A stretch of 64,000 nt of DNA from Theionarchaea archaeon. Lineage in GTDB: Archaea > Methanobacteriota_B > Thermococci > Methanofastidiosales > SZ-28-30. The position numbers were made by a program, and so were the translations under genes. Positions 12,816 through 25,619 of the stretch are shown here, piece after piece. The notes beneath the pieces are model-generated. The model saw nothing but the letters and a program-made list of their open reading frames with translations. It searched no databases and was not told the origin of the DNA. The stretch covers positions 89,365 through 153,364 of the forward strand of contig JACVGT010000019.1 of the NCBI GenBank assembly GCA_018992685.1, given 5' to 3'. Every line of letters starts with the position of its first letter. The stretch's first letter is position 1.

Positions 12816-13340
12816 ATGAGGATCGCCATTACAGGGACCCCGGGTGTGGGAAAGACTTCTGTAGCAAGAGAAATATCTGAAGCATTGGGACTAACCCTTA
12901 TCGACATATCTGCAGTGGCTGAGAAAAGTGGGGCAGTAGTGGGAAAAGAAGAAGACAGTCTGGTGGTGGATGTAGAGACCGTGAAGAAATCTCTTGAATC
13001 GGTGGATAATATCGTTATCGATTCACATTTCGCAGAAATGTTCGATGTGGATTTCGTGTTTGTGCTGCGCTGTGAACCCTCGACTCTCTGTGAGAGATTG
13101 AAAGCGAGAGGATATTCACAGGAAAAGATACGGGAGAACGTTTTGGCCGAGATACTGGACTATTCTCTGCAAAATGCTCTCACATTTCACCAACCAGAGA
13201 AGATCTTTGAAATTCTTGAGAATCCTGTCCGAGAAATAGTGAGTGTCATTAACAATCCAGATACCAAGAGAAGCGCAGCCTGTGGGAGTAAAACCCAGTT
13301 CCTCACTGAAGAGAATTTAGCCTTGGTGAGAGAATGCTAA
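12816..13340 (+). CDS. Archaeal adenylate kinase (AK6/Fap7 family)
   Basis: IAITGTPGVGKT, IDSH, RLKARGYS.EKIRENV.AE. Confidence 0.92.
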   Translation: MRIAITGTPGVGKTSVAREISEALGLTLIDISAVAEKSGAVVGKEEDSLVVDVETVKKSLESVDNIVIDSHFAEMFDVDFVFVLRCEPSTLCERLKARGYSQEKIRENVLAEILDYSLQNALTFHQPEKIFEILENPVREIVSVINNPDTKRSAACGSKTQFLTEENLALVREC

Positions 13341-13431: not shown

Positions 13432-14265
13432 ATGATCATTCGGGAGTTTGATCCCTGGAAGTCACGCCTGTGTACCTGTCCACCCAAATACTCTCTGAAT
13501 CCCTACACAGGATGTGATCATCGATGTGTGTACTGTTATATTACGGGGTACATTACGAATGCTTTCCACTGCAGGCCAAAATCTGATCTGTTGACCAGTT
13601 TGAAAAGGGAATTGAAGAAGATCGACAGCCATAAAATCATCTCTATGGCAAACAGTTCAGATCCCTACCCTCAGCTGGAGAGGAAGATGGAATTGACCAG
13701 GAAGGTGGTTCTCCTGTTTGCCAGGGAGAACTTCATGTTCCACATTGTCACCAAGTCTGATCTCGTAACCCGGGACATTGATGTGTTGAAAGATGCAGCC
13801 TGCGCTGTTGCAATCACGATTACCACCATGGACGAGGTCCTTGCCAGGAGGCTGGAACCAGGGGCGCCTCCTCCTGAAAAGAGAGTTGAAGCACTGAGAC
13901 GACTGAAAGAGAGCGGAATTCCAGTCTCTGTGAGAATTGATCCCATTATCCCTGGGGTTACAGCCCCTGAAGAAGTGCTTCAACAGGTCCCCTTTGTCGA
14001 CCATGTGACAGCTTCCACACTGAAACTGCGACCTGATGCAATCAGGAGAATGATGGCAGCAGTTCCAGAGGTAATGGCAACTCTGAAACCCCTCTATACC
14101 GAAAGGATTGGAAATGCCCTGTACTTACCTGAAAGAGTCCGGTTTCATACGTTGAACTCACTTGAAAAAGCGTGCAGAGAGAACAACGTGTCATTTGGCA
14201 CCTGCAGAGAAGGGTTGAACAGTGGAAGTAGCTGTGATGGGAGTCATCTTATACGTGACAGGTGA
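13432..14265 (+). CDS. Radical SAM protein (spore photoproduct lyase-like family)
   Basis: NPYTGCDHRCVYCY (CxxxCxxC), SSDPY, TKS, RIDPIIPG. Confidence 0.9.
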   Translation: MIIREFDPWKSRLCTCPPKYSLNPYTGCDHRCVYCYITGYITNAFHCRPKSDLLTSLKRELKKIDSHKIISMANSSDPYPQLERKMELTRKVVLLFARENFMFHIVTKSDLVTRDIDVLKDAACAVAITITTMDEVLARRLEPGAPPPEKRVEALRRLKESGIPVSVRIDPIIPGVTAPEEVLQQVPFVDHVTASTLKLRPDAIRRMMAAVPEVMATLKPLYTERIGNALYLPERVRFHTLNSLEKACRENNVSFGTCREGLNSGSSCDGSHLIRDR

Positions 14266-14291: not shown

Positions 14292-14804
14292 TCAGATAGG
14301 CTGAGAAGCCTCAATAGCCTCTCGGGCAAATTGGTCCTTCTTGCATGATATACAGTAAGATTCAATGTTGTTCCTGTCCTTATCAAGGAGTCCGACCTTT
14401 TCTATCTTCTTTCTGATCTCTTCCATGTGTCTCCTGGTAGTAATCACTTTCCCACATCCCTGACACAGGATAAGGTCATGTTCAATCTCATCATAGGACT
14501 CTGCCCTGTTTAAGGTGGCCATTTCAAACTTCTGGGTAAGGTTGATCCCCTCCCAGGGGCAGATATCCTGGCAGCTCCGGCAAAAAATGCACAACCCATG
14601 GTCGATTCTCATGGTCCTGGTCTTTTTCTCATCTACAATGGTGATGGCCTTTGGGGGGCACACCGCAGCGCAGGCGCCGCACCCAACGCACTCATCGGTG
14701 AACTCTGTCCTCCCTCTGAATCCTTCAGGGGCTGGAGAAGGCTCAAACGGATATTTTACTGTAAAAGGTTTCTTAAACAAGGAAAATAGTGCTTCAAGTT
14801 CCAT
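14292..14804 (-). CDS. mbhN: Membrane-bound hydrogenase 2x[4Fe-4S] subunit (MbhN/NuoI-like) with extra C-terminal CxxC pairs
   Basis: TVKYPF, GFRG, CVGCGACAAVCP, CIFCRSCQDICP. Confidence 0.88.
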   Translation of the reverse strand: MELEALFSLFKKPFTVKYPFEPSPAPEGFRGRTEFTDECVGCGACAAVCPPKAITIVDEKKTRTMRIDHGLCIFCRSCQDICPWEGINLTQKFEMATLNRAESYDEIEHDLILCQGCGKVITTRRHMEEIRKKIEKVGLLDKDRNNIESYCISCKKDQFAREAIEASQPI

Positions 14805-15688
14805 TAAATCACCACCCTTACGAGATCAATGACTGCCAGAACCGCCATGTATTTCCAGAAGAAAACAAAACTCTGTTCTGTCTTCACCCTGGCTGAAATG
14901 ACCTTGATAAAAATGAACAGGAGCCACAACAGCCCACCAGTAATCAAGAACATCCACCAGTTCTGCCAGAAGAACAGGATAACTACCAGAGAGATCACCG
15001 TAAACACTTTGACCTGGTTGGAAAGGGTGAAAATTGCCAACCTGTACCCGGAGTACTCCACCAGAGGTCCTCCCAGAATTTCCTGTTCGGCTTCTGGTAT
15101 GTCGAAGGGTTGCAACCCGATCTTGGCGGGTACAATGCTCAAGAAGGCAATGCAGGCAAAGGGAAGCTGGTAGAACAACATGCCGTGAACTTCCTGGGCC
15201 TCAGCTATTCCTGTCAAGGAAAAACTGCCTGCCCTCACTGCCACCGCCACAATGGAAATTGCCAGGGGCAGTTCATAGGCAAAGAGCTGGGTTACTTCTC
15301 TCGATCCTCCCACAGCGCCAAAGGGGCTGGCTGAAGAAAATCCTCCAACTGCCAGCATGATTGACGACATGTTCAGCACATAAATGACCACAATCACATC
15401 GCCAGCAAAGGACAGTCCCCACACCGGGAACAGCATGGGCACCACCAGGATAGAAGCCAGAGCAATGATGGGAGCCCAGGTGAACAGAGCGCCCGCTTTC
15501 TCAGGCCTAACACTGTCTTTGGACAGTAACTTCACGAAATCATAGAAGGGCTGCAAAAATGGTGGGCCACGTCTGTTCTGCATGCGTGCTCTCACCTTTC
15601 GGTACATCCCTGCATACAGGAACGTCATCACCGAGGTGAATAACAGCCCCGGAATGATGAAAATCGAAATCAATGGATTGAGACTCAT
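14804..15688 (-). CDS. mbhM: Membrane-bound hydrogenase NuoH-like membrane subunit
   Basis: RKVRARMQNRRGPP..QPFYD..KLLSK, PFDIPEAEQEILGGPLVEYSG; start at MSLNP after an AGGTGA RBS. Confidence 0.92.
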   Translation of the reverse strand: MSLNPLISIFIIPGLLFTSVMTFLYAGMYRKVRARMQNRRGPPFLQPFYDFVKLLSKDSVRPEKAGALFTWAPIIALASILVVPMLFPVWGLSFAGDVIVVIYVLNMSSIMLAVGGFSSASPFGAVGGSREVTQLFAYELPLAISIVAVAVRAGSFSLTGIAEAQEVHGMLFYQLPFACIAFLSIVPAKIGLQPFDIPEAEQEILGGPLVEYSGYRLAIFTLSNQVKVFTVISLVVILFFWQNWWMFLITGGLLWLLFIFIKVISARVKTEQSFVFFWKYMAVLAVIDLVRVVI

Positions 15689-15692
15689 GATA

Positions 15693-16778
15693 TCACCTAT
15701 CCGTACAGCAGAAACACGGGTCAATGCTTGCCAGCGTAATAGGAACGTCACCCAGGGTGTCCCCCTCCAGCATCACCGGGACTGCCTGTACATTGGCATA
15801 TGTGGGGGCACGTATTTTCACCCGCTCAGGATAAAAGGTGCCGTTGGACCTGACATAGTGGAACACTTCTCCGCGAGGAGCTTCGTATCTTCCAACTCCT
15901 TCGCCAGGTGGGATTTCTTTCACTGGAACTGCTATTTCCTTTCCCTTCAACCCCTTGAGAGCTGCTACTGCCTGTCTGATGATTTTCACTGATTCGAAAA
16001 CCTCAAGGAGCCTGACTTTTGCCCTGGCCATATTATCTTCTTCATCCAGGACGATTTTCTCGAAGTCCACTCTATCATATGCAAGGTGTGGATCATCCTT
16101 CCTCACATCAACAGCATAGCCTGACGCTCGGGCCAGAGGACCTACTGTACACAGCCTCCGTGCATCGTCTCTGGGCAGTGTCCCAGTTCCTACCAGTCGT
16201 GCTCTGATGGTCCTGTTTCTCAGGAAAGAATCAATGTAGTGTTCTGTCCTGCGCTCCACAACCTCGAGAGCGGTCAGCAGACCCGGGATCTGCTTTTCAG
16301 TGATGTCCTTCCTGCATCCTCCAACAGTATTCCATGCGTAATGGTTCCTGTTACCCGTTATTGTTTCAAGCTGATCCAGAACGAATTCTCTGTCTCTCCA
16401 CGTGTACATGAACAGTGTTTCAATCCCTATTATTTCAGCAGCTATTCCCGCCCACAACAAGTGGGAGTGAATCCTTTCCAGCTCAGCAATGATCATCCTC
16501 GAGTATTCAGCTCTTTCAGGCAGTGTGACACCAGCAATGTCCTCTACTGCCTGTGTGAATGCCAGAGGATGGGACATGGAACAGATGCCGCAGATTCGTT
16601 CCACCAGTAGTATGTCCTGTTCATAGGTTTTTCTTTCTGCAAGCTTCTCTACGCCTCTGTGGTTGTATCCCATGGTAATATCTACGTTGATGACTTTTTC
16701 TCCTTCTGCATACACTTTCAAGCGCTCAGGTTCTGCCAGAGCCAGGTGCTGGGGTCCAAATTGTACAACGACATCCAT
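15693..16778 (-). CDS. mbhL: Group 4 [NiFe] hydrogenase large subunit
   Basis: L1 ERICGICSMSH, EAPRGE, L2 DPCFCCTDR; all four Ni/Fe cysteines present. Confidence 0.95.
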   Translation of the reverse strand: MDVVVQFGPQHLALAEPERLKVYAEGEKVINVDITMGYNHRGVEKLAERKTYEQDILLVERICGICSMSHPLAFTQAVEDIAGVTLPERAEYSRMIIAELERIHSHLLWAGIAAEIIGIETLFMYTWRDREFVLDQLETITGNRNHYAWNTVGGCRKDITEKQIPGLLTALEVVERRTEHYIDSFLRNRTIRARLVGTGTLPRDDARRLCTVGPLARASGYAVDVRKDDPHLAYDRVDFEKIVLDEEDNMARAKVRLLEVFESVKIIRQAVAALKGLKGKEIAVPVKEIPPGEGVGRYEAPRGEVFHYVRSNGTFYPERVKIRAPTYANVQAVPVMLEGDTLGDVPITLASIDPCFCCTDR

Positions 16779-16779
16779 T

Positions 16780-17199
16780 TCAATACCTCCTCAAAGGATA
16801 TTCTGTATAGTCATCAGGAAGGAACAGGTGCCGGGGATCGGGGTGATTGACCACAATGATACCCATCATTTCCATGGCTTCCCTCTCGTACCAGGCTGCA
16901 GATGGGTAGAAATCAGATATGGTCTCAATCCTGGGATTTCCCCGTGGAGCAGACGTCTTCAGGCTCACCTGCAGGGGGGTAATCTCGAAGTGATAGACCA
17001 GTTCCAGCTCTTCGCCCAGGTCCACAGAAGAGATCACTGAGAGGTGGCCTCCCATATCCTGAAAGAGCTTGACTGCCTGTCTGTGGGATCCATTCTGCAC
17101 CTTGATAAATACTCTGTTTCTCCGCGTCGGGGTAACCTCCAGCACATTCTCCCTGAGATGAGTTCTCAACATTTCTTTCAACTCCGGAACAGTGACCAT
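16780..17199 (-). CDS. mbhK: Hydrogenase NuoC-like subunit
   Basis: LVYHF, AAWYEREAMEMMGI, HPDPRHLFLPDD..YPLRR. Confidence 0.92.
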   Translation of the reverse strand: MVTVPELKEMLRTHLRENVLEVTPTRRNRVFIKVQNGSHRQAVKLFQDMGGHLSVISSVDLGEELELVYHFEITPLQVSLKTSAPRGNPRIETISDFYPSAAWYEREAMEMMGIIVVNHPDPRHLFLPDDYTEYPLRRY

Positions 17200-17628
17200 T
17201 TACTCACCCCACAGAGCATTCAGTGCCGTGACAACCCCGTGCAGAATGGCCTGAGGCCTCGGTGGACATCCCGGAATGTATGCAGCCACCGGAATTACCT
17301 TGTCCGCAGGGCCATATGATGCATAGGTCTCATTGAAGATGCCTTTGGTGATGGCACAGGAACCAATGGCTACTGCAGCCTTTGGGTCCATGGTTTGCTC
17401 ATATAATCGTTTCAGTACATCCCTTGTCTTTAGTGTAATAATTCCAGTCACTACGATGATATCTGCATGACGAGGATTTGGCTTTAAGACTCCTCCAAAC
17501 CGTTCCACATCAAACCGGGGGGCAAGAGCGGCCAGAACTTCGATATCGCAGTTATTGCATGACCCGCAGCTCACGTGAAGCAGCCAGGGGGATTTCTTCC
17601 TGCAGTAATTCACCATTTTATCCAGCAT
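17200..17628 (-). CDS. mbhJ: Group 4 hydrogenase small subunit (NuoB-like)
   Basis: GSCNNCDIE, PRHAD, GSCA, IPGCPPRP. Confidence 0.95.
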   Translation of the reverse strand: MLDKMVNYCRKKSPWLLHVSCGSCNNCDIEVLAALAPRFDVERFGGVLKPNPRHADIIVVTGIITLKTRDVLKRLYEQTMDPKAAVAIGSCAITKGIFNETYASYGPADKVIPVAAYIPGCPPRPQAILHGVVTALNALWGE

Positions 17629-19445
17629 TAAACCACCCTCCACAAATACACGATCACCACAACAAGAGTGAATACTACCCAGAACACGTAGTTCTGCAGC
17701 AGTCCGCTGTGTTCAGATTTCAGGTACCGGTAGAATCGGCCAAGCGGAGCCATGATACCATAGTACAGGTTTGAACCACCTATATTGACATAGTAGTCTT
17801 CTTCCCCACAGATATATACGTCGTCTCTGGCATCAGGCTTCTTGTCTGATTTGTCTGATTCTGGCGCCAACGCTTTCCCTGTCCTTAGGGTCAAGAACAC
17901 AAAGGCCATGAGAAACAGCAGTACCAGCGAGATCATGACAGGACTCCAGTACGCATATTCAAGGTTCAACCCCAGGTTGTAGGCACCCACGTCCACCGGG
18001 ACACCCAGGAGGGAAGAGGACGCTTTCCCTACCAGCGTCAGAGGCAGCCTGGGGTAGACGCCAAATATGATGCATGTTACCGCAAGGATACCCATGGGGA
18101 CCTTCATCAGGAAGGGAACATCTTTCACCTCTCTGAATTCCTCTTTGAGCTGGCCCAGGAATGCAGAGTCCAGAGCCTTCAAGAACGAGCTCAAGGTGCC
18201 AACACTGGCCAGGATCAGGACTACGGTGAAAAAGTAGTACTCCTTCTGGTAGGTACCCACGTAAAGCATCCACTTGCTGACGAACCCATTGAAGGGAGGG
18301 ACTCCTGAAATTGCCAGCGCCCCTATGAAAAAGCAGAACGTGGTAAAAGGCATCTTCTTGGAAAGTCCACCCATCCTGTCAAGGTCCCACGTGCCAATCC
18401 GGTAGAAAACAGCCCCTGCACACAGGAAGAGGAGCCCTTTGTATACGGCATTGTTCATGAGATGGAACAGCCCTCCTGAGACTCCCAGAGGTGTCGCCAG
18501 TCCGATACCTGCTATAATATAGCCGAGCTGGGAGACAGCGTGATAGGACAGCAGCCGTTTGAAGTCGTGCTGCACCAGAGCCATCATGACACCCACGAAG
18601 GCTGTAATCACGCCGAAGGTTGCAATCATAGGGCTCGTGGCATCCATGGCATCAAACACCACGTACAGGACACGGGCAAGAAGATAGACACCAGCCACCT
18701 TGAAGGTACCTGCCAGGAGCATGCCCGTGGGAGTGGGAGCTGCAGGGTAACTGTCAGCAGCCCAGAAATGGAGCGGTACAATCCCTGCCTTGAATCCGAA
18801 TCCCACAACAAAGAATGCCAGAGCAACAATGTCCACAGATGACATGACGATCTTTGACGTGAGGTCCACCATGTTCAGAGTCTGGTACTGGGCATACAGC
18901 AGTGCCACTCCAAACAGGATAAACGTGGATACGACACCACCCAACGTCAACAACTTGAAAGCAGCTTCCGCTGAATCCCATTTTCTGTGATATGACACCA
19001 GAGCATAGGTGGAAACTGACATGATCTCAAAGAAGACGTACAGGTTAAACATGTCCCCTGTGAGGACGACACCTGAAATTCCTGCAATCTGGAGACAGAA
19101 CAGCGTGTAAAACTTTCCTCTGCGGGGATCTTTCCTCATATAGGGGACAGCATACAGTGCAGAGAAAGAAGCCATTCCTGCTGCCACGCACGCTGCAAAG
19201 AGGGATAGTGCGTCAACATACAAGGTAATACCATAGGGGGGGCTCCTGTTACCCAGTGCATAGACAATCACATCACCAGAGAGAACCTGCGATATCATGG
19301 TCAGTCCGCATACCAGGCTCCCTACAAACGCCAGGAAGGGAATGTAATCCCGCAGCCGGCCTGACCCCAGTCCTACAAGGGGAGTTATGAACGCTGCAGA
19401 CAGAGGCAGCAAAACCATGAAAATGGGTGCATGTTCAGTAATCAT
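17628..19445 (-). CDS. mbhH: MrpD-like antiporter subunit MbhH, apparently fused to an MbhI-like C-terminal domain
   Basis: GDMFNLYVFFEIMS, KAGIVPLHFW, KRLLSYH, GVPPFNGFVSKW; extension contains YICGEE and HSGLLQNYVFW. Confidence 0.9.
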   Translation of the reverse strand: MITEHAPIFMVLLPLSAAFITPLVGLGSGRLRDYIPFLAFVGSLVCGLTMISQVLSGDVIVYALGNRSPPYGITLYVDALSLFAACVAAGMASFSALYAVPYMRKDPRRGKFYTLFCLQIAGISGVVLTGDMFNLYVFFEIMSVSTYALVSYHRKWDSAEAAFKLLTLGGVVSTFILFGVALLYAQYQTLNMVDLTSKIVMSSVDIVALAFFVVGFGFKAGIVPLHFWAADSYPAAPTPTGMLLAGTFKVAGVYLLARVLYVVFDAMDATSPMIATFGVITAFVGVMMALVQHDFKRLLSYHAVSQLGYIIAGIGLATPLGVSGGLFHLMNNAVYKGLLFLCAGAVFYRIGTWDLDRMGGLSKKMPFTTFCFFIGALAISGVPPFNGFVSKWMLYVGTYQKEYYFFTVVLILASVGTLSSFLKALDSAFLGQLKEEFREVKDVPFLMKVPMGILAVTCIIFGVYPRLPLTLVGKASSSLLGVPVDVGAYNLGLNLEYAYWSPVMISLVLLFLMAFVFLTLRTGKALAPESDKSDKKPDARDDVYICGEEDYYVNIGGSNLYYGIMAPLGRFYRYLKSEHSGLLQNYVFWVVFTLVVVIVYLWRVV

Positions 19446-19792
19446 TCTTTCAACCCCCTGATTTCTGTAATGTCCAGGGTGCCATAATGTCGGTAGAGGA
19501 CAATAGCTATACTCAAGGCAAGAGCAGTGACACTGAGCCCGATGACAATGCTGGTCAGCACCAGTGCCTGGGGCAAGGGATCTACCATGACAGCAGTTTC
19601 AGAGGTTACGTCAGGCAGGACCACAATGGGAGGTGACCCGCCCTGAACGTACCCTGTGGCAATAAGGAAATATTGAACCGCATAGTCCATCAGACTGAGT
19701 CCCACCACGATTTTGATGAGATTCTTCTTTACCATGACAGCATACAATCCAATGACAAATACAATAGTGCAGACGATATAGTCGATATTCAT
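19442..19792 (-). CDS. mbhG: MrpC-like subunit
   Basis: NLIKIVVGL, DPLPQALVLTSIVIG, YRHYGTLD. Confidence 0.92.
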   Translation of the reverse strand: MNIDYIVCTIVFVIGLYAVMVKKNLIKIVVGLSLMDYAVQYFLIATGYVQGGSPPIVVLPDVTSETAVMVDPLPQALVLTSIVIGLSVTALALSIAIVLYRHYGTLDITEIRGLKE

Positions 19793-20217
19793 GGGGGACT
19801 CCTCCTCATGTTGTTGAAAATGGCTGTCAGCTCTGTCCCCACTTTAACACCAATTGCAATGTAGATCGGACCCAGAATCCCTGCGCTGAGCAACGTTCCT
19901 GGTTGTCCCAGTCCAACAGCATTCCACAGGAAATTTCCTCCTTTCAGTATGCCAATACACCCGAGGCCAATGAAACACAAGGCTGCTACACTTTCGAGAG
20001 CAGTCATCACTGATTCGGGAATTCTCAGTGTGCCAAATCCCAGGTAGAGCAGGATGATGCTTGAAGCAATGATGGTACCTCCCTGAAACCCACCTCCAGG
20101 TGTCAGATGGCCATGAACAAAGATATAGACCCCATACACAAAAGCCAGGGGGAAAACCACGCGGGTTATGCTCTTCACAATGACACTGGGTTCGCGGGGG
20201 TCCTCATTCTTTTTCAT
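19789..20217 (-). CDS. mbhF: MrpB-like subunit
   Basis: HGHLTPGGGFQGG, GTLLSAG, GVKV; start placed at MKKNED. Confidence 0.9.
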   Translation of the reverse strand: MKKNEDPREPSVIVKSITRVVFPLAFVYGVYIFVHGHLTPGGGFQGGTIIASSIILLYLGFGTLRIPESVMTALESVAALCFIGLGCIGILKGGNFLWNAVGLGQPGTLLSAGILGPIYIAIGVKVGTELTAIFNNMRRSPP

Positions 20218-20485
20218 TGTCTTCCCTCCGCTTCCTCCAGAATAGTGCAGCCACTCCTGTCGTCGCAGTGAACAGGACAGTGACTTCTCCCAGCGTGTCA
20301 TATCCTCTATAGTCCAGCACAATATTCGTCACCAGGTTGGTGGCTCCGGCTTCTTCAAGTCCGTCTTCCAGGTAGTGCTCTCCGACCCCGATAGAATGGT
20401 CTCCAAACCTGTTGACACCAGTAACTGTGTAGATCAGAACTGACATCAGTAATCCCAGCAAGAGATAGCTCAGTGCACGCTTCAT
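20204..20485 (-). CDS. mbhE: MbhE-like subunit
   Basis: GATNLVTNIVLDYRGYDTLGEVTVLF. Confidence 0.9.
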   Translation of the reverse strand: MKRALSYLLLGLLMSVLIYTVTGVNRFGDHSIGVGEHYLEDGLEEAGATNLVTNIVLDYRGYDTLGEVTVLFTATTGVAALFWRKRREDNEKE

Positions 20486-20718
20486 TCTTCTGACCTCCGG
20501 GTATGGCTAATGGCTAAAAGCAGGATAAATGTGGACAGAGCAGCCCCAATAGCAACTTCTGTCATGGCTACATCTGGAGCCTGCAGCTGATAGAAGAGTA
20601 AAGCCAGGCACAGGCTGCACATCCCCAGAGACACGGCTGTATATATCAGATCTTTGAACTCTACGGCCACCAGCGCACTGGCAGCAAAGAGCACCAGCAA
20701 GATGAGATGTGAGATCAT
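20482..20718 (-). CDS. mbhD: MbhD-like subunit (DUF4040)
   Basis: QAPDVAMTEVAIGAAL. Confidence 0.9.
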   Translation of the reverse strand: MISHLILLVLFAASALVAVEFKDLIYTAVSLGMCSLCLALLFYQLQAPDVAMTEVAIGAALSTFILLLAISHTRRSEE

Positions 20719-21041
20719 TCAAACTCCTCCTTGAACGCGTCATAACTCCCGATTTTCATGCGGGTTCCTGATCTGTATGCAGCCCGGGCTATTGCATGGG
20801 CAGATGTTGGATTTCCCAGGACAATGAAGACGATGATAATGACAGCTTTGATGGCCACTTCTCCCTGCATGAGGAGTGCCACACCCAGAAGCGTGCACAT
20901 GGCACCCAGCGTGGTGCATTTGGTGGCTGCATGCATCCGGGTGAACATGTCGGGAAGTCGAAGCAATCCAATAGCACCCACCAGGAGAAAGAAGGTGCCT
21001 ATTGCGATGAGAATATCTGCGATGAGAGTTCCTGCCATCAT
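20715..21041 (-). CDS. mbhC: MrpG-like subunit
   Basis: GLLRLPDMFTRMHAATKCTTLG, NPTSAHAIARAAY. Confidence 0.92.
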   Translation of the reverse strand: MMAGTLIADILIAIGTFFLLVGAIGLLRLPDMFTRMHAATKCTTLGAMCTLLGVALLMQGEVAIKAVIIIVFIVLGNPTSAHAIARAAYRSGTRMKIGSYDAFKEEFE

Positions 21042-21301
21042 AATCCTCCCTCCAAGTAACGTGCAATGGCAATAACAGCAATAAAACTCAGCAGCGCGTA
21101 GATAATTGCCACATCTATCAACCACGTTCTATTATAGACAACGCCAAGAACAACCAGGAGAGCAGTAGTAATGGTGGTAGCAGCATCCAGAGCAATGACC
21201 CGGTCCCCTGCTGTAGGACCTTTCACGGCTCTCAAGAATGAAAGCAGAAATGCGAAAGAAATGACAAATACTGCACCCTGCAGAAAAGAGAGTTCCATCA
21301 T
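21038..21301 (-). CDS. mbhB: MrpF-like subunit
   Basis: GPTAGDRVIALD, DVAIIYALLSFIAVIAIARYL. Confidence 0.92.
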   Translation of the reverse strand: MMELSFLQGAVFVISFAFLLSFLRAVKGPTAGDRVIALDAATTITTALLVVLGVVYNRTWLIDVAIIYALLSFIAVIAIARYLEGGL

Positions 21302-21789
21302 GAAAACACCTTGTTCAAGAATCTCATGAATCGGCCAGTAATCATCTCTGCAGCTTCCTGTGGGTTATACGTTTGAATGTTCAGCCAGTGCACATAGAAA
21401 TTAGTGCCCACAACGTCCAGCGTAAGGGTCCCGGGAGTCAGAGTAATTGAATTTGCCAGAAGAGTCCTTCCGTAGTCTGACTGCAGGGATACAGGTACCC
21501 GGACGATTCCTGGGTTTATGGGCATTCTCGGATGGAGCACTCGATAGGCCACATCAAGGTTGGATTTGATGATCTCCCAGAGCAGGGCAGGGATATACAC
21601 GAGGAAGAAGACCACTCTCCTGGGATGAAGGCTCACAGCAGGGAACAGGTTCCTGGACAGGACTGCCACGATGAAAGCTGCAAGCAACCCCACTGCAAGA
21701 GGAGGATACCCCTGTTCCTGGATTTCAGACCAGGTCAGAAGAACCCACAGGATCAACGTTGCGATGAATGCAGAGATACATTGCTTCAT
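21298..21789 (-). CDS. mbhA: MrpE-like subunit
   Basis: SNLDVAYRVLHP, PGIV, LANSITLTPGTLT, VHW. Confidence 0.92.
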   Translation of the reverse strand: MKQCISAFIATLILWVLLTWSEIQEQGYPPLAVGLLAAFIVAVLSRNLFPAVSLHPRRVVFFLVYIPALLWEIIKSNLDVAYRVLHPRMPINPGIVRVPVSLQSDYGRTLLANSITLTPGTLTLDVVGTNFYVHWLNIQTYNPQEAAEMITGRFMRFLNKVFS

Positions 21790-21793
21790 AGGT

Positions 21794-22972
21794 TCACCTC
21801 AGAACTTCCACCACTTTGGTAGAGTCCATTTCCACTCTAATACCCGCGTCAGCCAGTTGATTCCGTACTGAAGGGGTTATAAACGGCATTGTTCCCATGA
21901 TCACAGGGATCTTTTGTGACGCCAGTGCAAGAGCAGCTGTCAACATCCTGGGGTCTCTCCACCTGGGCATGAGGACCGTGAGGGCTCGTATCCCCAGGAG
22001 TTTTGCCGGCTCGCAGCATCCCGCATTGATCACACAGGGGACCTGGAATTCGTTCATGAGAGCACATTGATGATCAGGATGTTCCAGCAGGCCACATGTC
22101 AAGTTCAGAACCATGAATTTCTGGCTGATCAACTGGTGAACGATGGCATCGAGGTTCCAGGTGCTCTTTCCAGACGCACAGCCCATGATTGCCACCACTC
22201 CCGCAATGAGACCAGAATCCACCGCCTTGTTGAGTGTTTCAGTGTCCACAGGATAACCCACTGTTGCACGTCGAGGAGTAACCTTTCTGAACGATGCCTG
22301 GTCCCTCCTGGAGAAATTTTCAACAGCAGTCTCACAGGCAGCAGCCACATCTCCACCTTGATACACATAGTCTATCATGTCGCCCGCTTCTTCAAGAATG
22401 TCAATTCCACCCAGCAGGGGAATCCCGAAATTCGAGGCAGCTTCCGCCCCTTCACACAGGGCACCTACAAGGTTAATCCCTCTGGCAGTGCGTCCCCTGG
22501 CCAGATCCCTCATTTTCTGACTTCTGGCCTGCTTTATTATGTCAGGAGAGTATACAGTGGTCACAATGTTCACTGCGTCCTTCTGTAAGACTCCAAGGCC
22601 AGACTCAACATTCCGAGGTTTTTTCTGATCTGACTGCCACTGGCCAACCAGCGTCTGCGAAGGTTCCAGAATGGAACCACTGGCTTTCACCAGATCCTGA
22701 ATAGTAACCCCTGCCTCATGGGTGTGAATCATCCTATCTAGTGAAAGAGGCACAGAGATTCCCACTCCATAATCAGTCAATCCCTTGAGGACATGCAGTC
22801 CCAGGTTCACAACATTCATACCTTCTGCATCAATCCCACAGGCCCCCACGTGGGGTTCTTCATCAAAAGGGTTTACAATACATGGCCCTAAATCACAATA
22901 CGTACACATCATACCGGCAGAAGCCAGCTCATTCTGAGGCTTCTGAGCCTGTAATCGATCCATTGTTTTCAT
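21794..22972 (-). CDS. Truncated, degenerate CooS (Ni-CODH)/HCP-superfamily Fe-S protein
   Basis: B-cluster CTYCDLGPC-x13-CG; CooS-like blocks LGVLQKDAVNI, RGINLVGALCEG.E..GIP, IAGVVAIMGC, LTCG, VINAGCC; only 392 aa. Confidence 0.8.
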   Translation of the reverse strand: MKTMDRLQAQKPQNELASAGMMCTYCDLGPCIVNPFDEEPHVGACGIDAEGMNVVNLGLHVLKGLTDYGVGISVPLSLDRMIHTHEAGVTIQDLVKASGSILEPSQTLVGQWQSDQKKPRNVESGLGVLQKDAVNIVTTVYSPDIIKQARSQKMRDLARGRTARGINLVGALCEGAEAASNFGIPLLGGIDILEEAGDMIDYVYQGGDVAAACETAVENFSRRDQASFRKVTPRRATVGYPVDTETLNKAVDSGLIAGVVAIMGCASGKSTWNLDAIVHQLISQKFMVLNLTCGLLEHPDHQCALMNEFQVPCVINAGCCEPAKLLGIRALTVLMPRWRDPRMLTAALALASQKIPVIMGTMPFITPSVRNQLADAGIRVEMDSTKVVEVLR

Positions 22973-23433
22973 GCCTTTCCTCTCCTCTCTTTCATGATCT
23001 GTGAAAACTCACCATATACGAGAGCATTGGTGGGGCAGGCACGGACACATGCGGGTCCTCCTACATTCCTGCACAGGTCACACTTTACCATTATCTGTCC
23101 ACGGGAATCAGGTTCAATGATTCCAATGGGACAGGCCACACTGCACGATCTGCACCCGATACACAGACCATCATCGATAACCACGATGCCATCGTCTCCC
23201 TTTTCAATGGCGTCCACCGGGCAGGCTTCCATGCAGGGAGGAACCTCACAGTGACGGCAGCTGAGCACAACAGTCTGTGTATTATCACCCTTCAGGAAAA
23301 TCCGAGTCTTGGGAAGAAGAGGTGCAGTAAGAGCCTGGTATACCGTGTCTGCATGCTTCCATGCCATGGAACATGCTACTTCACAATTGCGGCAAGCCAC
23401 ACATCGCTCTGAATCATAATAAAGTGCTTTCAT
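22969..23433 (-). CDS. CooF/HydN-type 4x[4Fe-4S] electron-transfer protein
   Basis: CVACRNCEVAC, CRHC..PCMEACP, CIGCRSCSVACP, KCDLC...PACVRACP. Confidence 0.9.
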   Translation of the reverse strand: MKALYYDSERCVACRNCEVACSMAWKHADTVYQALTAPLLPKTRIFLKGDNTQTVVLSCRHCEVPPCMEACPVDAIEKGDDGIVVIDDGLCIGCRSCSVACPIGIIEPDSRGQIMVKCDLCRNVGGPACVRACPTNALVYGEFSQIMKERRGKA

Positions 23434-23987
23434 TCGGGAACCCCTTCTGGTGCTACCTTTTAAATTTTACGCATGAAAACACATGTCCTCCGTGGACCCC
23501 CATGTCTCCCCTCTCATCGGGCAATAGTATCCTAGAATCTGTATTTATCGTGTGGATGTGCCTTGTCAAATCCATGGTACCTCCTCACAGCCAGGTAGCC
23601 CACGCTGCTTCTGTATCTTGCCAGGCTATCGATTTCAGCACAGACAATGATCTGGAAAAGTGTCAACGAAAGAAGAGAAAGCATTCTCCTGGGTGTGAAA
23701 GATTACGATACGATTCCTGGGTTGAAAGGTATTGCCTGTTCCCGCCCCAGGTTCGACAGCATGCCACGGATTATCAGTATCTGTAGAACCCAACTCCTGA
23801 ACGTGGGTAGAGAATGGTTACGAGCTTCTTTCCCTCAAGAAGTATGACTACTCCTCTTTCAGTCTCAGCTGGGCGATCACTCATAGGGCAGGCCTCGCAC
23901 CCTGACCGGGGAAAAGTTTTTATGCTCACCTCCATCATGTAATAACGCTAAGAGTTATTGATTAACAACATCGGCCCGAGGCACACC

Positions 23988-24788
23988 ATGAGCAAAGAAC
24001 TGCTGATCCAGAAAGGCAAAGAAATGCTGCTCGAAACGGGAGCCAAAGCTCTGCTGTTGTATGTTGAATCAGATTCAGATTTGGGACTTGCGCCTGAGAA
24101 CACCATTTTTGTGTATGACAACAAGAAGTTCAGTGAAATTGATGACACGGGAGTTCTCATTCCACTGAACGTAAGTCCTGAAGAGAGAATGAACCTCGCT
24201 ATTGCCGGAGCCATGGAAAAAGGCCTGCTCCACAAGAATGACAAAGTGATATACGTGAATAATAACAGTATTTCATTAAAAACAGCGAAAGAACAAATGG
24301 ATAAAGGGATATACAAGATCCTGTTCACTGCCGCAAATATTGACCCTGACGTGGTCAAAGAAGTCCTGGAAATCGCTGTTGAATTGGGGAAGAAAGGGCG
24401 AGAAGGAAAGCCTGTAGGAAGCACCTTCATCATTGGAGACTCAGGAGAAGTCATGAACAGGTCAACTCAGATCACATACAATCCCTTTCAGGGGAGCATG
24501 GTCAATATTCAGGACGACGTGGTGCGCAGCATGATAAAGGAGTATTCAAGGTTGGATGGAGCTTTTATCATTAGTGGCAAAGGGAAGATCATTGCGGCAG
24601 CACGATTTCTTGAATGCGGAAAGGAAGGAATCAAGATGCCCAAAGGATTGGGTGCTCGTCACATGGCTGCAGCATGGATAACCAAGAAGACAGATAGCAT
24701 TGGTGTTGTCCTCTCAGAATCAGATAATATGATTCGTGTCTTCTGGGACGGTGAGATGATTGAAGAGCTCGATCCTGAGAAGTTGTAG
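23988..24788 (+). CDS. dacZ: Diadenylate cyclase (archaeal DacZ type)
   Basis: GREGKPVG, LDGAF (DGA) and GLGARHMAAA (RHR-type) motifs, plus N-terminal extra domain; start placed at MSKELL. Confidence 0.9.
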   Translation: MSKELLIQKGKEMLLETGAKALLLYVESDSDLGLAPENTIFVYDNKKFSEIDDTGVLIPLNVSPEERMNLAIAGAMEKGLLHKNDKVIYVNNNSISLKTAKEQMDKGIYKILFTAANIDPDVVKEVLEIAVELGKKGREGKPVGSTFIIGDSGEVMNRSTQITYNPFQGSMVNIQDDVVRSMIKEYSRLDGAFIISGKGKIIAAARFLECGKEGIKMPKGLGARHMAAAWITKKTDSIGVVLSESDNMIRVFWDGEMIEELDPEKL

Positions 24789-24791
24789 GAG

Positions 24792-25619
24792 GTGATGCTG
24801 ATTTCATTTATTGAGGAATGGTTTGGACAAGTGATCAATCAACTGGAAGAACTGATCCCTCGACTGGTTAAATTCCTGGGAATCCTCATAGTCGCCTATA
24901 TTCTGGGGAGAATTCTCGCCTGGCTGGTAGCCACAATTCTTCGCAAACTGGAGTTTGAGCGGCTGACCAAGAAATCAGAGGCAGAGAGAATTGCACGACG
25001 ATTCGGCATGTCGTTAATTGGACTGATTGGATCGGTTGTGAAGTGGACCATTTATCTGATCGGGCTGCAGGTGGCTGTTGAAGCTGCTGGTCTTGATATT
25101 CTCAATCGGTTGATGCGGGGGATTGTCAGTTACATGCCCAACCTCATTCTGGCTCTAGCTATCTTCATTGTGGGAATACTGATAGCTGAGAAAGTGGGCA
25201 ACTTTGTGCAGGGTCTGGCCGAAGATGAAAAGGTTCCTCGATTCTGGATCCTGGGAAACCTTGTGCGGTACACAATATATCTGGTCGTAATGATTATGGC
25301 CCTCTCACAACTGAAGATATCCACTGATGTCCTGATAATCGTTACCGGTTCGATCTTTGCTGCCATCGGGTTGATTGTAGTCATTAGTTTGAGAGATGTT
25401 GGACCAAACGTTGCTGCAGGGATCCATTTGCTGTACGAAAAGACATTGAACGTCGGAGATACAGTCAAAGTCGGCCGGTATGAAGGGATCATTGAAGATA
25501 TTGGCATTGTGAAATCTATCATAAAGAATGAAGAGGGAGAGTTCATTGTCATCCCCAACTCACAGTTGATGAGAAGCATCATAATAAAGAAACTGTCTCC
25601 TGAAGAAGCACTGGAGTAG
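24792..25619 (+). CDS. mscS: Small-conductance mechanosensitive channel (MscS family)
   Basis: Repeated TM-helix units (LIPRL.., YMPNLI..), VGDTV, GIIEDIG, IPNSQL. Confidence 0.88.
   Translation: MMLISFIEEWFGQVINQLEELIPRLVKFLGILIVAYILGRILAWLVATILRKLEFERLTKKSEAERIARRFGMSLIGLIGSVVKWTIYLIGLQVAVEAAGLDILNRLMRGIVSYMPNLILALAIFIVGILIAEKVGNFVQGLAEDEKVPRFWILGNLVRYTIYLVVMIMALSQLKISTDVLIIVTGSIFAAIGLIVVISLRDVGPNVAAGIHLLYEKTLNVGDTVKVGRYEGIIEDIGIVKSIIKNEEGEFIVIPNSQLMRSIIIKKLSPEEALE

Follow-up and report, generated by a model that had tools for sequence, protein, structure and literature searches.

Introduction

In Rhodospirillum rubrum and Carboxydothermus hydrogenoformans, the carbon monoxide dehydrogenase (CODH) CooS, the ferredoxin CooF and the Coo hydrogenase make up one module, and in formate hydrogenlyase of the Escherichia coli type (FdhF-HycB-Hyc) HycB, a ferredoxin with four clusters, connects a soluble catalytic subunit to a group 4 hydrogenase. 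The membrane-bound hydrogenase (Mbh) of the Thermococcales takes its electrons directly from ferredoxin (PMC9258230). Shortened CooS homologs are also on record: the mini-CooS of Thermosinus carboxydivorans, reported at 428/482 amino acids and with none of its 11 Cys nor the His lost (Techtmann et al. 2012, PMC3328121), was placed in clade G (Inoue et al. 2022, PMC8776680). Here we describe, in a window of 64,000 nucleotides (nt) from a Theionarchaea archaeon (assembly GCA_018992685.1, contig JACVGT010000019.1, positions 89,365 to 153,364), an operon in which a cooF-like ferredoxin gene and a gene for a 392-amino-acid CODH-fold protein, which we call mini-CODH, lead the genes of an Mbh-type hydrogenase.

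The arrangement has a precedent in a Thermococcales locus (L078), where cooF-cooS-cooC directly precede a group 4 hydrogenase. On balance, we favor the reading that mini-CODH and CooF form a streamlined catalytic electron-input head of an H2-evolving Mrp-Mbh hydrogenase; that a CooF/mini-CODH/Mbh complex really exists is very likely.

Results

Two extra genes lead an Mbh-type hydrogenase operon

The operon consists of 15 contiguous open reading frames (ORFs) on the minus strand, running from 23433 to 14292, that encode the CooF-like ferredoxin, mini-CODH and the Mbh-type hydrogenase (Table 1). A preliminary description of this DNA had listed 15 same-strand genes with tiny overlaps or gaps, and the ORF layout bears this out: neighboring frames overlap by 4 nt or 1 nt or are separated by gaps of 0–4 nt, and the longer overlaps at MbhC, MbhF, MbhJ and MbhM are an artefact of mechanically taking the first GTG or TTG start. 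The gene order given there (CooF-like, CooS-like, mbhA to mbhN) also stands, but the count of 14 mbh genes does not, as Pfam and NCBIfam identification of the ORFs yields 13. These are collinear, from A to N, with the Mbh operon of a Thermococcales locus (L088), at 31–59% identity. A separate 118-amino-acid ORF at the MbhI position of that locus weakly matches residues 527–598 of the 605-residue MbhH (22% identity, E 5e-4), so H and I look fused in the window operon. In MbhL, both [NiFe] Cys pairs are present (RICGICSMSH and DPCFCCTDR), and their retention in a NuoD-like protein identifies it as a true group 4 hydrogenase large subunit. Its identity to three Thermococcales hydrogenase paralogs, one of them CODH-linked, is 45%, 43% and 43%, which does not single out any of the three as the nearest.

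Upstream of the cooF-like start codon we noticed a TATA-box-like element of ten bases, ATTTAAAAGG, which is invariant in all six aligned upstream regions (the window, L054 and L061–L064); the sequence further upstream is unconserved. The element is a putative archaeal TATA box that may serve as the promoter of the operon. A 245-nt contig of one metatranscriptome run is identical to 22802–23046 and spans the junction between the cooF-like and mini-CODH genes. Carry-over of DNA is possible, and the remainder of the operon is without cover in the same run; the contig gives a weak hint of co-transcription of the two genes.

Mini-CODH is a trimmed CODH core with a rebuilt site

We mapped the cluster ligands of mini-CODH by HMMER against CODH-II of C. 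hydrogenoformans (sequences from the Protein Data Bank, PDB; three aligned stretches) and by an 83-row MAFFT alignment with full-length CooS, and the two maps agree. The HMMER alignment confirmed the CODH-II numbering for residues 39–70, 93, 261, 295, 446 and 476; the remaining ligands we take to be residues 333, 526 and 563. The B-cluster is intact, with Cys48/51/56/70 found as C23/C26/C31/C45, and both D-cluster cysteines are lost (C39 to N14 and C47 to M22, with N14 and M/L22 in all Theionarchaeal rows). Four of the six C-cluster ligands are kept, namely C295, C446, C476 and C526 as C173, C265, C293 and C320. H261 is replaced by Y141, C333 is lost at the beginning of a stretch deleted behind Q205/G206, and K563 has become R342, which is invariant. 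In all these positions the by-eye assignments of the preliminary description agree with ours. Its claim that the helix carrying the catalytic His93 had been replaced has to be dropped: the helix is present (residues 49–67 in the structural model), and the His93 position is taken by an invariant Tyr68. Tyrosine is common at the position of His93 among CODHs of clades C, D and G (PMC6344411).

A fifth cysteine, C213, lies at the start of helix 209–222, after the strand (202–204) that in canonical enzymes ends in Cys333. It is present only in the subgroup that keeps the Cys295/446/476 equivalents, and it could plausibly replace Cys333 as a ligand.

Mini-CODH passes the broad Pfam Prismane model PF03063 (80 bits vs 27) and stays under the equivalog threshold of TIGR01702 (90 bits vs a cut-off of 478). 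This score, together with the change of two of the six C-cluster ligands, both D-cluster cysteines and both acid/base residues, supports the earlier view that mini-CODH is not a canonical Ni-CODH. Compared with the 636-residue CODH-II, it is shorter by about 25 residues N-terminally and about 38 C-terminally, and internally by about 95 residues between Cys70 and His261, about 59 between Cys295 and Cys446, and about 23 between Cys476 and Cys526.

The AlphaFold2 (AF2) model built from the 83-row alignment is confident (pLDDT 93.3, pTM 0.91); it superseded a poor model from the 25-row family alignment (pLDDT 65.3). The best Foldseek match of the model is the CODH of D. vulgaris (TMq 0.85), and VIA-align superposes 388 of its 392 residues on the CODHs of Thermococcus AM4 and D. 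vulgaris with Z 29.1 and a root-mean-square deviation (rmsd) of 2.1 Å. CooS-V, a CODH scaffold with a hybrid cluster, follows with Z 27.0–27.4 over 386 residues (rmsd 2.3–2.4 Å). Hybrid cluster proteins (HCPs) match less well: Z is 23.8 for class III HCP, with 336 residues superposed at an rmsd of 3.4 Å, 18.8 for E. coli HCP and about 18 for other HCPs. The preliminary description had spoken of a CODH/HCP fold. Because the CODHs reach Z 27–29 and the HCPs only 18–24, the model clearly points to a trimmed CODH core rather than an HCP, and only the first half of that label stands.

The docked ferredoxin may stand in for the D-cluster

Four ferredoxin motifs account for the 16 Cys of the CooF-like protein, all of them invariant in eight aligned sequences, and the protein is 36–38% identical to the CooF proteins that adjoin full-length cooS in two Thermococcales loci. 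We predicted its complex with two copies of mini-CODH, with CooF as the scored partner. The docking score (ipSAE) is the model's own confidence; of 80 solved complexes, 58 reach a mark of 0.78, as do 2 of 110 mismatched pairs, a calibration that holds only roughly here as three chains with their own alignments were used. CooF on the mini-CODH dimer scored 0.78, 0.77 and 0.78, and the best of three controls 0.00. The runs share at least 97% of their contacts, and the partner's pLDDT is at least 83. In the predicted interface, CooF residues 10–22 (which hold Cys11/14/17/21 of the first motif), 30–54 and 131–136 contact residues 11–19 and 32–37 of both mini-CODH copies. These contacts lie on the two-fold axis and surround N14, where Cys39 of the D-cluster used to be, beside the B-cluster loop C31-IVNPFD. 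In this model, the first cluster of the docked ferredoxin may functionally replace the lost D-cluster. In canonical CODHs, an electron leaving the C-cluster first reaches the B-cluster of the opposite subunit and only after it the D-cluster; because the path runs through the partner's B-cluster, the dimer would still be needed.

Mini-CODH forms a family of its own in Theionarchaea

A word-indexed search of 5.8 billion proteins returned 24 full-length relatives of 390–397 amino acids (56–86% identity) and two fragments, which wherever named are named Theionarchaea; the next match is a 630-amino-acid CooS (E 3.6e-17). A profile search of 1.84 billion cluster representatives gave four matches below 1e-30, namely the family representative, a 173-amino-acid fragment and proteins of 396 and 389 amino acids, followed by a 67-amino-acid fragment (9e-26) and then CooS (1e-17). 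The length cut-offs of four published CODH surveys, which removed sequences below 550 (PMC6344411) or below 400 amino acids (PMC8776680, PMC13056359 and PMC13240472), mean that a family of 390–397 amino acids could not appear in them. The module is not described in the available portions of PMC9635834, PMC10116835, PMC12806544 and PMC9258230, and supplementary tables of CODH surveys might list such sequences.

We surveyed 121 genomes of the class (GTDB places Theionarchaea within Thermococci). The gene occurs in its own genome and in both other genomes of the genus (G046 and G054), and the survey gave no mini-CODH match in G030, a 91% complete genome of the same family and another genus. Six of the seven genomes of a neighboring family (f4) hold a homolog of 387–394 amino acids, counted from its likely start, that is 27–30% identical over the whole length. 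Matches in Thermococcaceae are weak and lie mostly in open frames of 636–671 amino acids, that is, full-length CooS. As far as found, the mini-CODH clade is confined to Theionarchaea.

In a 46-row maximum-likelihood tree (quick search, SH-aLRT support; restricted to CooS-type rows, without a CdhA or HCP outgroup or named clade references), the Theionarchaeal group has a support of 99, the f4 group of 100 and the two together of 100. They make up a starred 17-row clade apart from full-length CooS and from mini-CooS-type proteins of 443–504 amino acids. The tree thus supports the placement of mini-CODH in no characterized clade among those sampled. The sister clade, of 387–396 amino acids, shares the deletions and keeps the B-cluster, the Cys526 equivalent and Lys563. 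It is without the Cys295/446/476 equivalents and has new Cys in NICA, GIPC and SPTC. Its genes stand alone; in L053 and L060, they are followed by an 84–85-amino-acid ORF and an amino-acid-kinase-family gene. The CODH scaffold has been reduced separately in two short CooS-like proteins, P0168 (443 amino acids, bacterial by its source name, Clostridiaceae bacterium) and P0226 (467 amino acids), which group with the mini-CooS-type rows and keep the B-cluster Cys after losing nearly all C-cluster ligands.

The gene neighborhood is equally stable. In all six other loci (L054, L055 and L061–L064) the 390–397-amino-acid form sits at the same place, with the cooF-like gene directly upstream and mbhA/B directly downstream, and all 13 mbh genes are present in the three loci long enough to hold them. 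G030, which is without mini-CODH, is also without an orthologous MbhL and holds only a second hydrogenase that is 36–38% identical. From this conserved synteny and joint absence we conclude that the operon behaves as one unit across a sample of four related genomes.

Could mini-CODH instead be what is left of a full-length cooS, eroding ahead of the Mbh operon and functionless by itself? Its shortness, the missing catalytic residues and its rank as the most diverged gene of the operon would fit. Its frame is nevertheless open and of similar length in all 25 sequences of the family alignment, 102 of 392 columns are invariant, and the AF2 fold is compact and of high confidence. In a comparison with the closest relative, the ratio of nonsynonymous to synonymous rates (dN/dS) is 0.067 (dN 0.074, dS 1.11), inside the range of the 14 neighboring genes (0.016–0.143, with the CooF value taken from 41 codons only). 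That the sister group has the same deletions indicates that the small form is old and stable. These observations support a conserved gene under purifying selection, as the preliminary description had argued from the clean frame, and we give the idea of a remnant hardly any credence. Neither a full-length CooS under relaxed selection in relatives, nor a complete set of ligands, nor a place in a characterized clade, the outcomes against which the earlier view had been set, turned up.

Maturation genes, Cdh and a second hydrogenase

The assembly that holds the window comprises 3.03 Mb in 45 contigs and is 91% complete. The preliminary description had found no cooC or cooT in the window, and the genome agrees: a Thermococcales CooC query matches only contigs C8 and C23, not the window's contig C15, and a genome-wide search for CooT (PF10133) found none. 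The C8 protein is a CooC-type ATPase, 38% identical (E 1e-60) to the CooC that adjoins cooS in the Thermococcales CODH-hydrogenase cluster. Its gene stands alone among unrelated neighbors (malic enzyme, CDP-alcohol phosphatidyltransferase), and its presence makes Ni maturation possible in this genome. An ortholog occurs in G046 (82%); G054 (84% complete) gives a 34% match only, and in G030, CooC-like genes flank the Cdh cluster.

A full-length CooS encoded elsewhere, which the preliminary description had offered as a possible partner, is not found in the own assembly: it contains no other Prismane-family gene and no match to CdhA, CdhC or CdhD. The relatives differ, as G046, G054 and G030 each hold a CdhA-like gene and CdhC with CooC-like genes beside the cluster (CdhA-like frames of 777–782 amino acids in G046 and G030, a contig-end fragment only in G054). 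The lineage usually also has a canonical CODH/acetyl-CoA synthase, and the absence here may reflect an assembly gap or a recent loss of the carbonyl branch of the acetyl-CoA pathway. The own genome also encodes a second group 4 [NiFe] hydrogenase, and G046, G054 and G030 all have an ortholog of its large subunit. Possibly this is the anaplerotic hydrogenase Ehb that Theionarchaea are said to retain together with the Wood-Ljungdahl pathway (PMC9635834).

These findings bear on the possibility that the system runs in reverse. Mbh would then oxidize H2, and the ion gradient would push low-potential electrons via CooF into mini-CODH, which would reduce, for example, CO2 to CO for Cdh and acetyl-CoA, or an N-oxide as in HCP and CooS-V. 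The CdhA-like and CdhC genes of the three relatives, the reported Wood-Ljungdahl pathway and Ehb, and the close structural match to CooS-V are in line with this. We nevertheless consider it improbable: the gene order is that of the H2-evolving Mbh, the second hydrogenase could be the anaplerotic one, and the own assembly has neither CdhC nor CdhD to use the CO made. Furthermore, mini-CODH keeps the first C-cluster Cys, which is Glu in the CooS-V group (PMC6344411).

A catalytic input head or an electron adaptor

In the reading we favor, mini-CODH would be a miniaturized dimeric CODH core, minus about 244 peripheral residues and the D-cluster, with the CooF-like ferredoxin seated on the two-fold axis at the old D-cluster site. 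The first [4Fe-4S] cluster of CooF would take the relay role of the D-cluster between the two B-clusters and the outside, and (mini-CODH)2 plus CooF would form the soluble electron-input head of an Mrp-Mbh [NiFe] hydrogenase of 14 subunit equivalents, comparable to FdhF-HycB in formate hydrogenlyase and to CooS-CooF in CO-linked hydrogenases, all 15 genes presumably being transcribed as one operon from the promoter before the cooF-like gene. A small molecule, with CO as the default candidate, would be oxidized at a cluster held by Cys173, Cys265, Cys293 and Cys320, probably with Cys213 in place of the deleted Cys333. Electrons would travel from this C-site to the B-cluster of the partner subunit, on through the CooF clusters to MbhN/MbhJ and finally to the [NiFe] site, where protons would be reduced to H2 while the Mrp part moves ions. 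Catalysis, the substrate, the metal content, the direction of electron flow and what Cys213 does are our inferences in this scheme. Since five Cys are conserved where the active site used to be, and E321, K324, W338 and R342 are invariant, we consider a catalytic role likelier than that of a pure wire and lean toward an enzyme. That CO is its substrate is rather doubtful.

Several observations weigh against this reading. The C-site is without His261 and Cys333, and Tyr and Arg stand where CODH-II has the acid/base residues His93 and Lys563; according to mutagenesis work, such changes cripple CO oxidation in canonical CODHs, and titles of PDB entries include the CODH variants H93A, K563A and C295D. 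The TIGR01702 score falls far below its cut-off. The operon carries no cooC, the genome search gave no CooT, and the CooC-type gene does not track mini-CODH cleanly: in a comparison of 34 genomes of the order, G054 gave only the 34% match, and G030 has CooC-like genes beside its CdhA. The site tolerates change: C265 is kept in 23 of the 25 family sequences (His in two), C293 in 24 (Tyr in one), and Y141 is Asn in two. Mini-CODH is always the most diverged gene of the operon (57–63% identity vs 70–88% for its neighbors, and 86% vs 85–97% in the closest relative). The B-cluster/CooF-docking part, residues 1–55, is the best conserved of the protein, with a majority fraction of 0.86–0.95 per ten-residue block against 0.77 overall, and exceeds the segments around the C-site Cys (mean 0.78–0.88), a pattern that would also fit a mere electron adaptor. 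Finally, the sister group has lost most C-site Cys yet persists, so a CODH scaffold can be of use even when its site is no longer of the CODH type.

Because the C-site is less conserved than the docking surface, an alternative stays in play, in which mini-CODH, with its B-cluster and either an ordinary [4Fe-4S] cluster or nothing in the C-site, would be a non-catalytic scaffold and wire that, together with CooF, lets ferredoxin or another soluble oxidoreductase feed Mbh. The loss of two catalytic ligands and both acid/base residues, the replacement of a single C-site Cys in 3 of 25 sequences, the fastest evolution among the operon genes, and the scaffold retained by the sister group all fit such an adaptor. 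For a wire, however, a length of 392 residues would be needlessly large, and five Cys would not have to be kept where the active site once was. All 25 sequences share the four B-cluster Cys as well as C173, C213, C320, E321, K324, W338 and R342, and the Thermococcales Mbh operon, whose subunit equivalents are the same 14, works without head genes of this kind inside the operon. An adaptor is, in our view, unlikely.

Returning to the catalytic head, one more specific form of it would be a minimal CODH scaffold with a five-Cys site, a cluster unlike [Ni-4Fe-4S] (Ni-free or differently built) and a substrate other than CO. We put this forward tentatively, as a combination with a low likelihood. 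If true, it would represent a new kind of substrate-coupled, ion-pumping 'hydrogenlyase' in which a ferredoxin cluster physically replaces the enzyme's D-cluster.

Flanking genes and feature coordinates

Downstream, the operon borders on a convergent radical-SAM gene; upstream, a DacZ-type gene diverges from it. The radical-SAM gene (13432–14265, plus strand; weak DUF1848 and SPL matches) and an AAA_18 kinase-like gene (12816–13340, plus strand) converge on the 3' end of the operon and seem unrelated to it. On the other side, a DacZ-type diadenylate cyclase gene (DacZ_T and DAC domains; 23958–24788, plus strand) is directly followed by a gene for an MscS-like mechanosensitive channel (24792–25619, plus strand), and the two may form a cyclic di-AMP/osmoregulation pair. 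Coordinates of all features are collected in Table 1.

Table 1. Features of the mini-CODH/Mbh operon and related genes elsewhere; positions refer to the window unless a contig or locus is given.
Feature	Position	Strand	Identification and remarks
TATA-box-like element ATTTAAAAGG (putative promoter)	23456..23465	-	23–32 nt upstream of the cooF-like start codon
CooF-like ferredoxin, 154 amino acids	22969..23433	-	Pfam Fer4_11 and related families; four CxxCxxC...CP motifs, 16 Cys
Mini-CODH, 392 amino acids	21794..22972	-	Prismane/CODH family; 4-nt overlap with the cooF-like stop; B-cluster, no D-cluster, remodeled C-site
Mini-CODH site residues	21794..22972	-	C173, C213, C265, C293, C320; Y68, Y141, R342
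MbhA (MnhE-like)	21298..21789	-	Pfam MNHE, 1.9e-42
MbhB (MrpF-like)	21038..21301	-	Pfam MrpF_PhaF
MbhC (MnhG-like)	20715..21125	-	Pfam PhaG_MnhG_YufB, residues 39–117; real start probably 3' of the listed GTG
MbhD	20482..20718	-	Pfam MbhD
MbhE	20204..20485	-	Pfam MbhE
MbhF (MnhB-like)	19789..20322	-	Pfam MnhB, residues 48–165; real start probably 3' of the listed TTG
MbhG (NuoK-like)	19442..19792	-	Pfam Oxidored_q2
MbhH, antiporter-like, 605 amino acids, probably with fused MbhI equivalent	17628..19445	-	Pfam Proton_antipo_M
MbhJ (NuoB-like hydrogenase small subunit)	17200..17643	-	Pfam Oxidored_q6
MbhK (NuoC-like)	16780..17199	-	Pfam Complex1_30kDa
MbhL, [NiFe] large subunit, 361 amino acids	15693..16778	-	Pfam Complex1_49kDa and NiFeSe_Hases; both CxxC pairs
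MbhM (NuoH-like)	14804..15751	-	Pfam NADHdh
MbhN (NuoI/HycF-like, 2x[4Fe-4S])	14292..14804	-	Pfam Fer4_7; NCBIfam formate hydrogenlyase iron-sulfur subunit, 4e-32
CooC-type P-loop ATPase, 278 amino acids	G000:C8:82209-83042 (= L081:8210-9046)	+	GKGGVGKT P-loop and Cys-x-Cys motif
Second group 4 [NiFe] hydrogenase large subunit	G000:C15:1646-2719	-	38% identical to MbhL; about 100 kb away on the same contig
Sister-clade gene	L053:14486-15670	-	
Sister-clade gene	L056:14050-15228	-	
Sister-clade gene	L057:4765-5949	-	
Sister-clade gene	L058:7786-8949	-	
Sister-clade gene	L059:2380-3552	+	
Sister-clade gene	L060:2351-3514	+	
Further sister-clade proteins			P0125, P0126

Discussion

No smaller CODH-type core would be known from a conserved functional context: mini-CODH has about 60% of the usual length. 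Since nearly every one of its residues has a structural counterpart in the full enzyme, it amounts to a natural experiment on what the CODH scaffold needs, and it is of interest for engineering CODHs for CO2 reduction. The predicted complex suggests a way in which an internal relay cluster can be lost, with a cluster of a partner docking at the same place. The operon would add a third soluble head, besides formate dehydrogenase and full-length CODH, to the Mrp-linked group 4 hydrogenases, and it bears on how the abundant sediment archaea of the Theionarchaea dispose of or gain electrons.

Among shortened CODHs, the Thermosinus mini-CooS resembles mini-CODH as a shortened CooS homolog adjoining a cooF gene, but it is longer and keeps all ligands (PMC3328121), which mini-CODH does not. 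Three proteins of 465–492 amino acids (P0260, P0142 and P0149), which we took to be of the Thermosinus type by length and motifs, the Thermosinus sequence itself lying outside the set, keep HGH, C333, C446, C476 and C526. Their deletions differ from those of mini-CODH, and they sit with full-length CooS, a starred branch away from the Theionarchaeal clade. As for CooS-V of C. hydrogenoformans (PDB 7b7q and 7b9a), we know of no link to a hydrogenase. It shares with mini-CODH a CODH fold with a non-canonical active-site cluster, but is full length (about 629 amino acids), and its group has Glu for the first C-cluster Cys (PMC6344411), which mini-CODH retains as Cys173.

Among hydrogenase systems, the Mbh of Pyrococcus and Thermococcus, a 14-subunit, ferredoxin-dependent and Na+-linked complex, is matched in its collinear genes and in the retained [NiFe] motifs. 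The window operon differs from it in the two extra genes at its head, in the apparent fusion of MbhH and MbhI, and in an MbhL of 361 amino acids against a 430-amino-acid ORF in L088. Formate hydrogenlyase is echoed in MbhN, which matches the NCBIfam model of its iron-sulfur subunit. Its catalytic subunit, however, is a molybdopterin enzyme where the window's has a CODH fold, and Pfam identification of the operon genes revealed no formate dehydrogenase gene among them.

The closest parallel in gene arrangement is the Thermococcales CODH-hydrogenase of L078, a cooF-cooS-cooC-Mch cluster of the Thermococcus type, as in hydrogenogenic carboxydotrophs. Both place a group 4 [NiFe] hydrogenase with antiporter-like subunits immediately behind a cooF-like and a CODH-family gene; CooF is 36–38% identical to its counterparts in CODH-linked systems, and MbhL 43% to the CODH-linked large subunit. 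Unlike L078, the window operon has no cooC, and its mbh genes follow the order A to N. Its CODH has 392 rather than 649 amino acids and is without the D-cluster, His261, Cys333, His93 and Lys563. The operon is therefore a variant of the known CODH-CooF-hydrogenase theme, with a presumed catalytic subunit that belongs to no described group.

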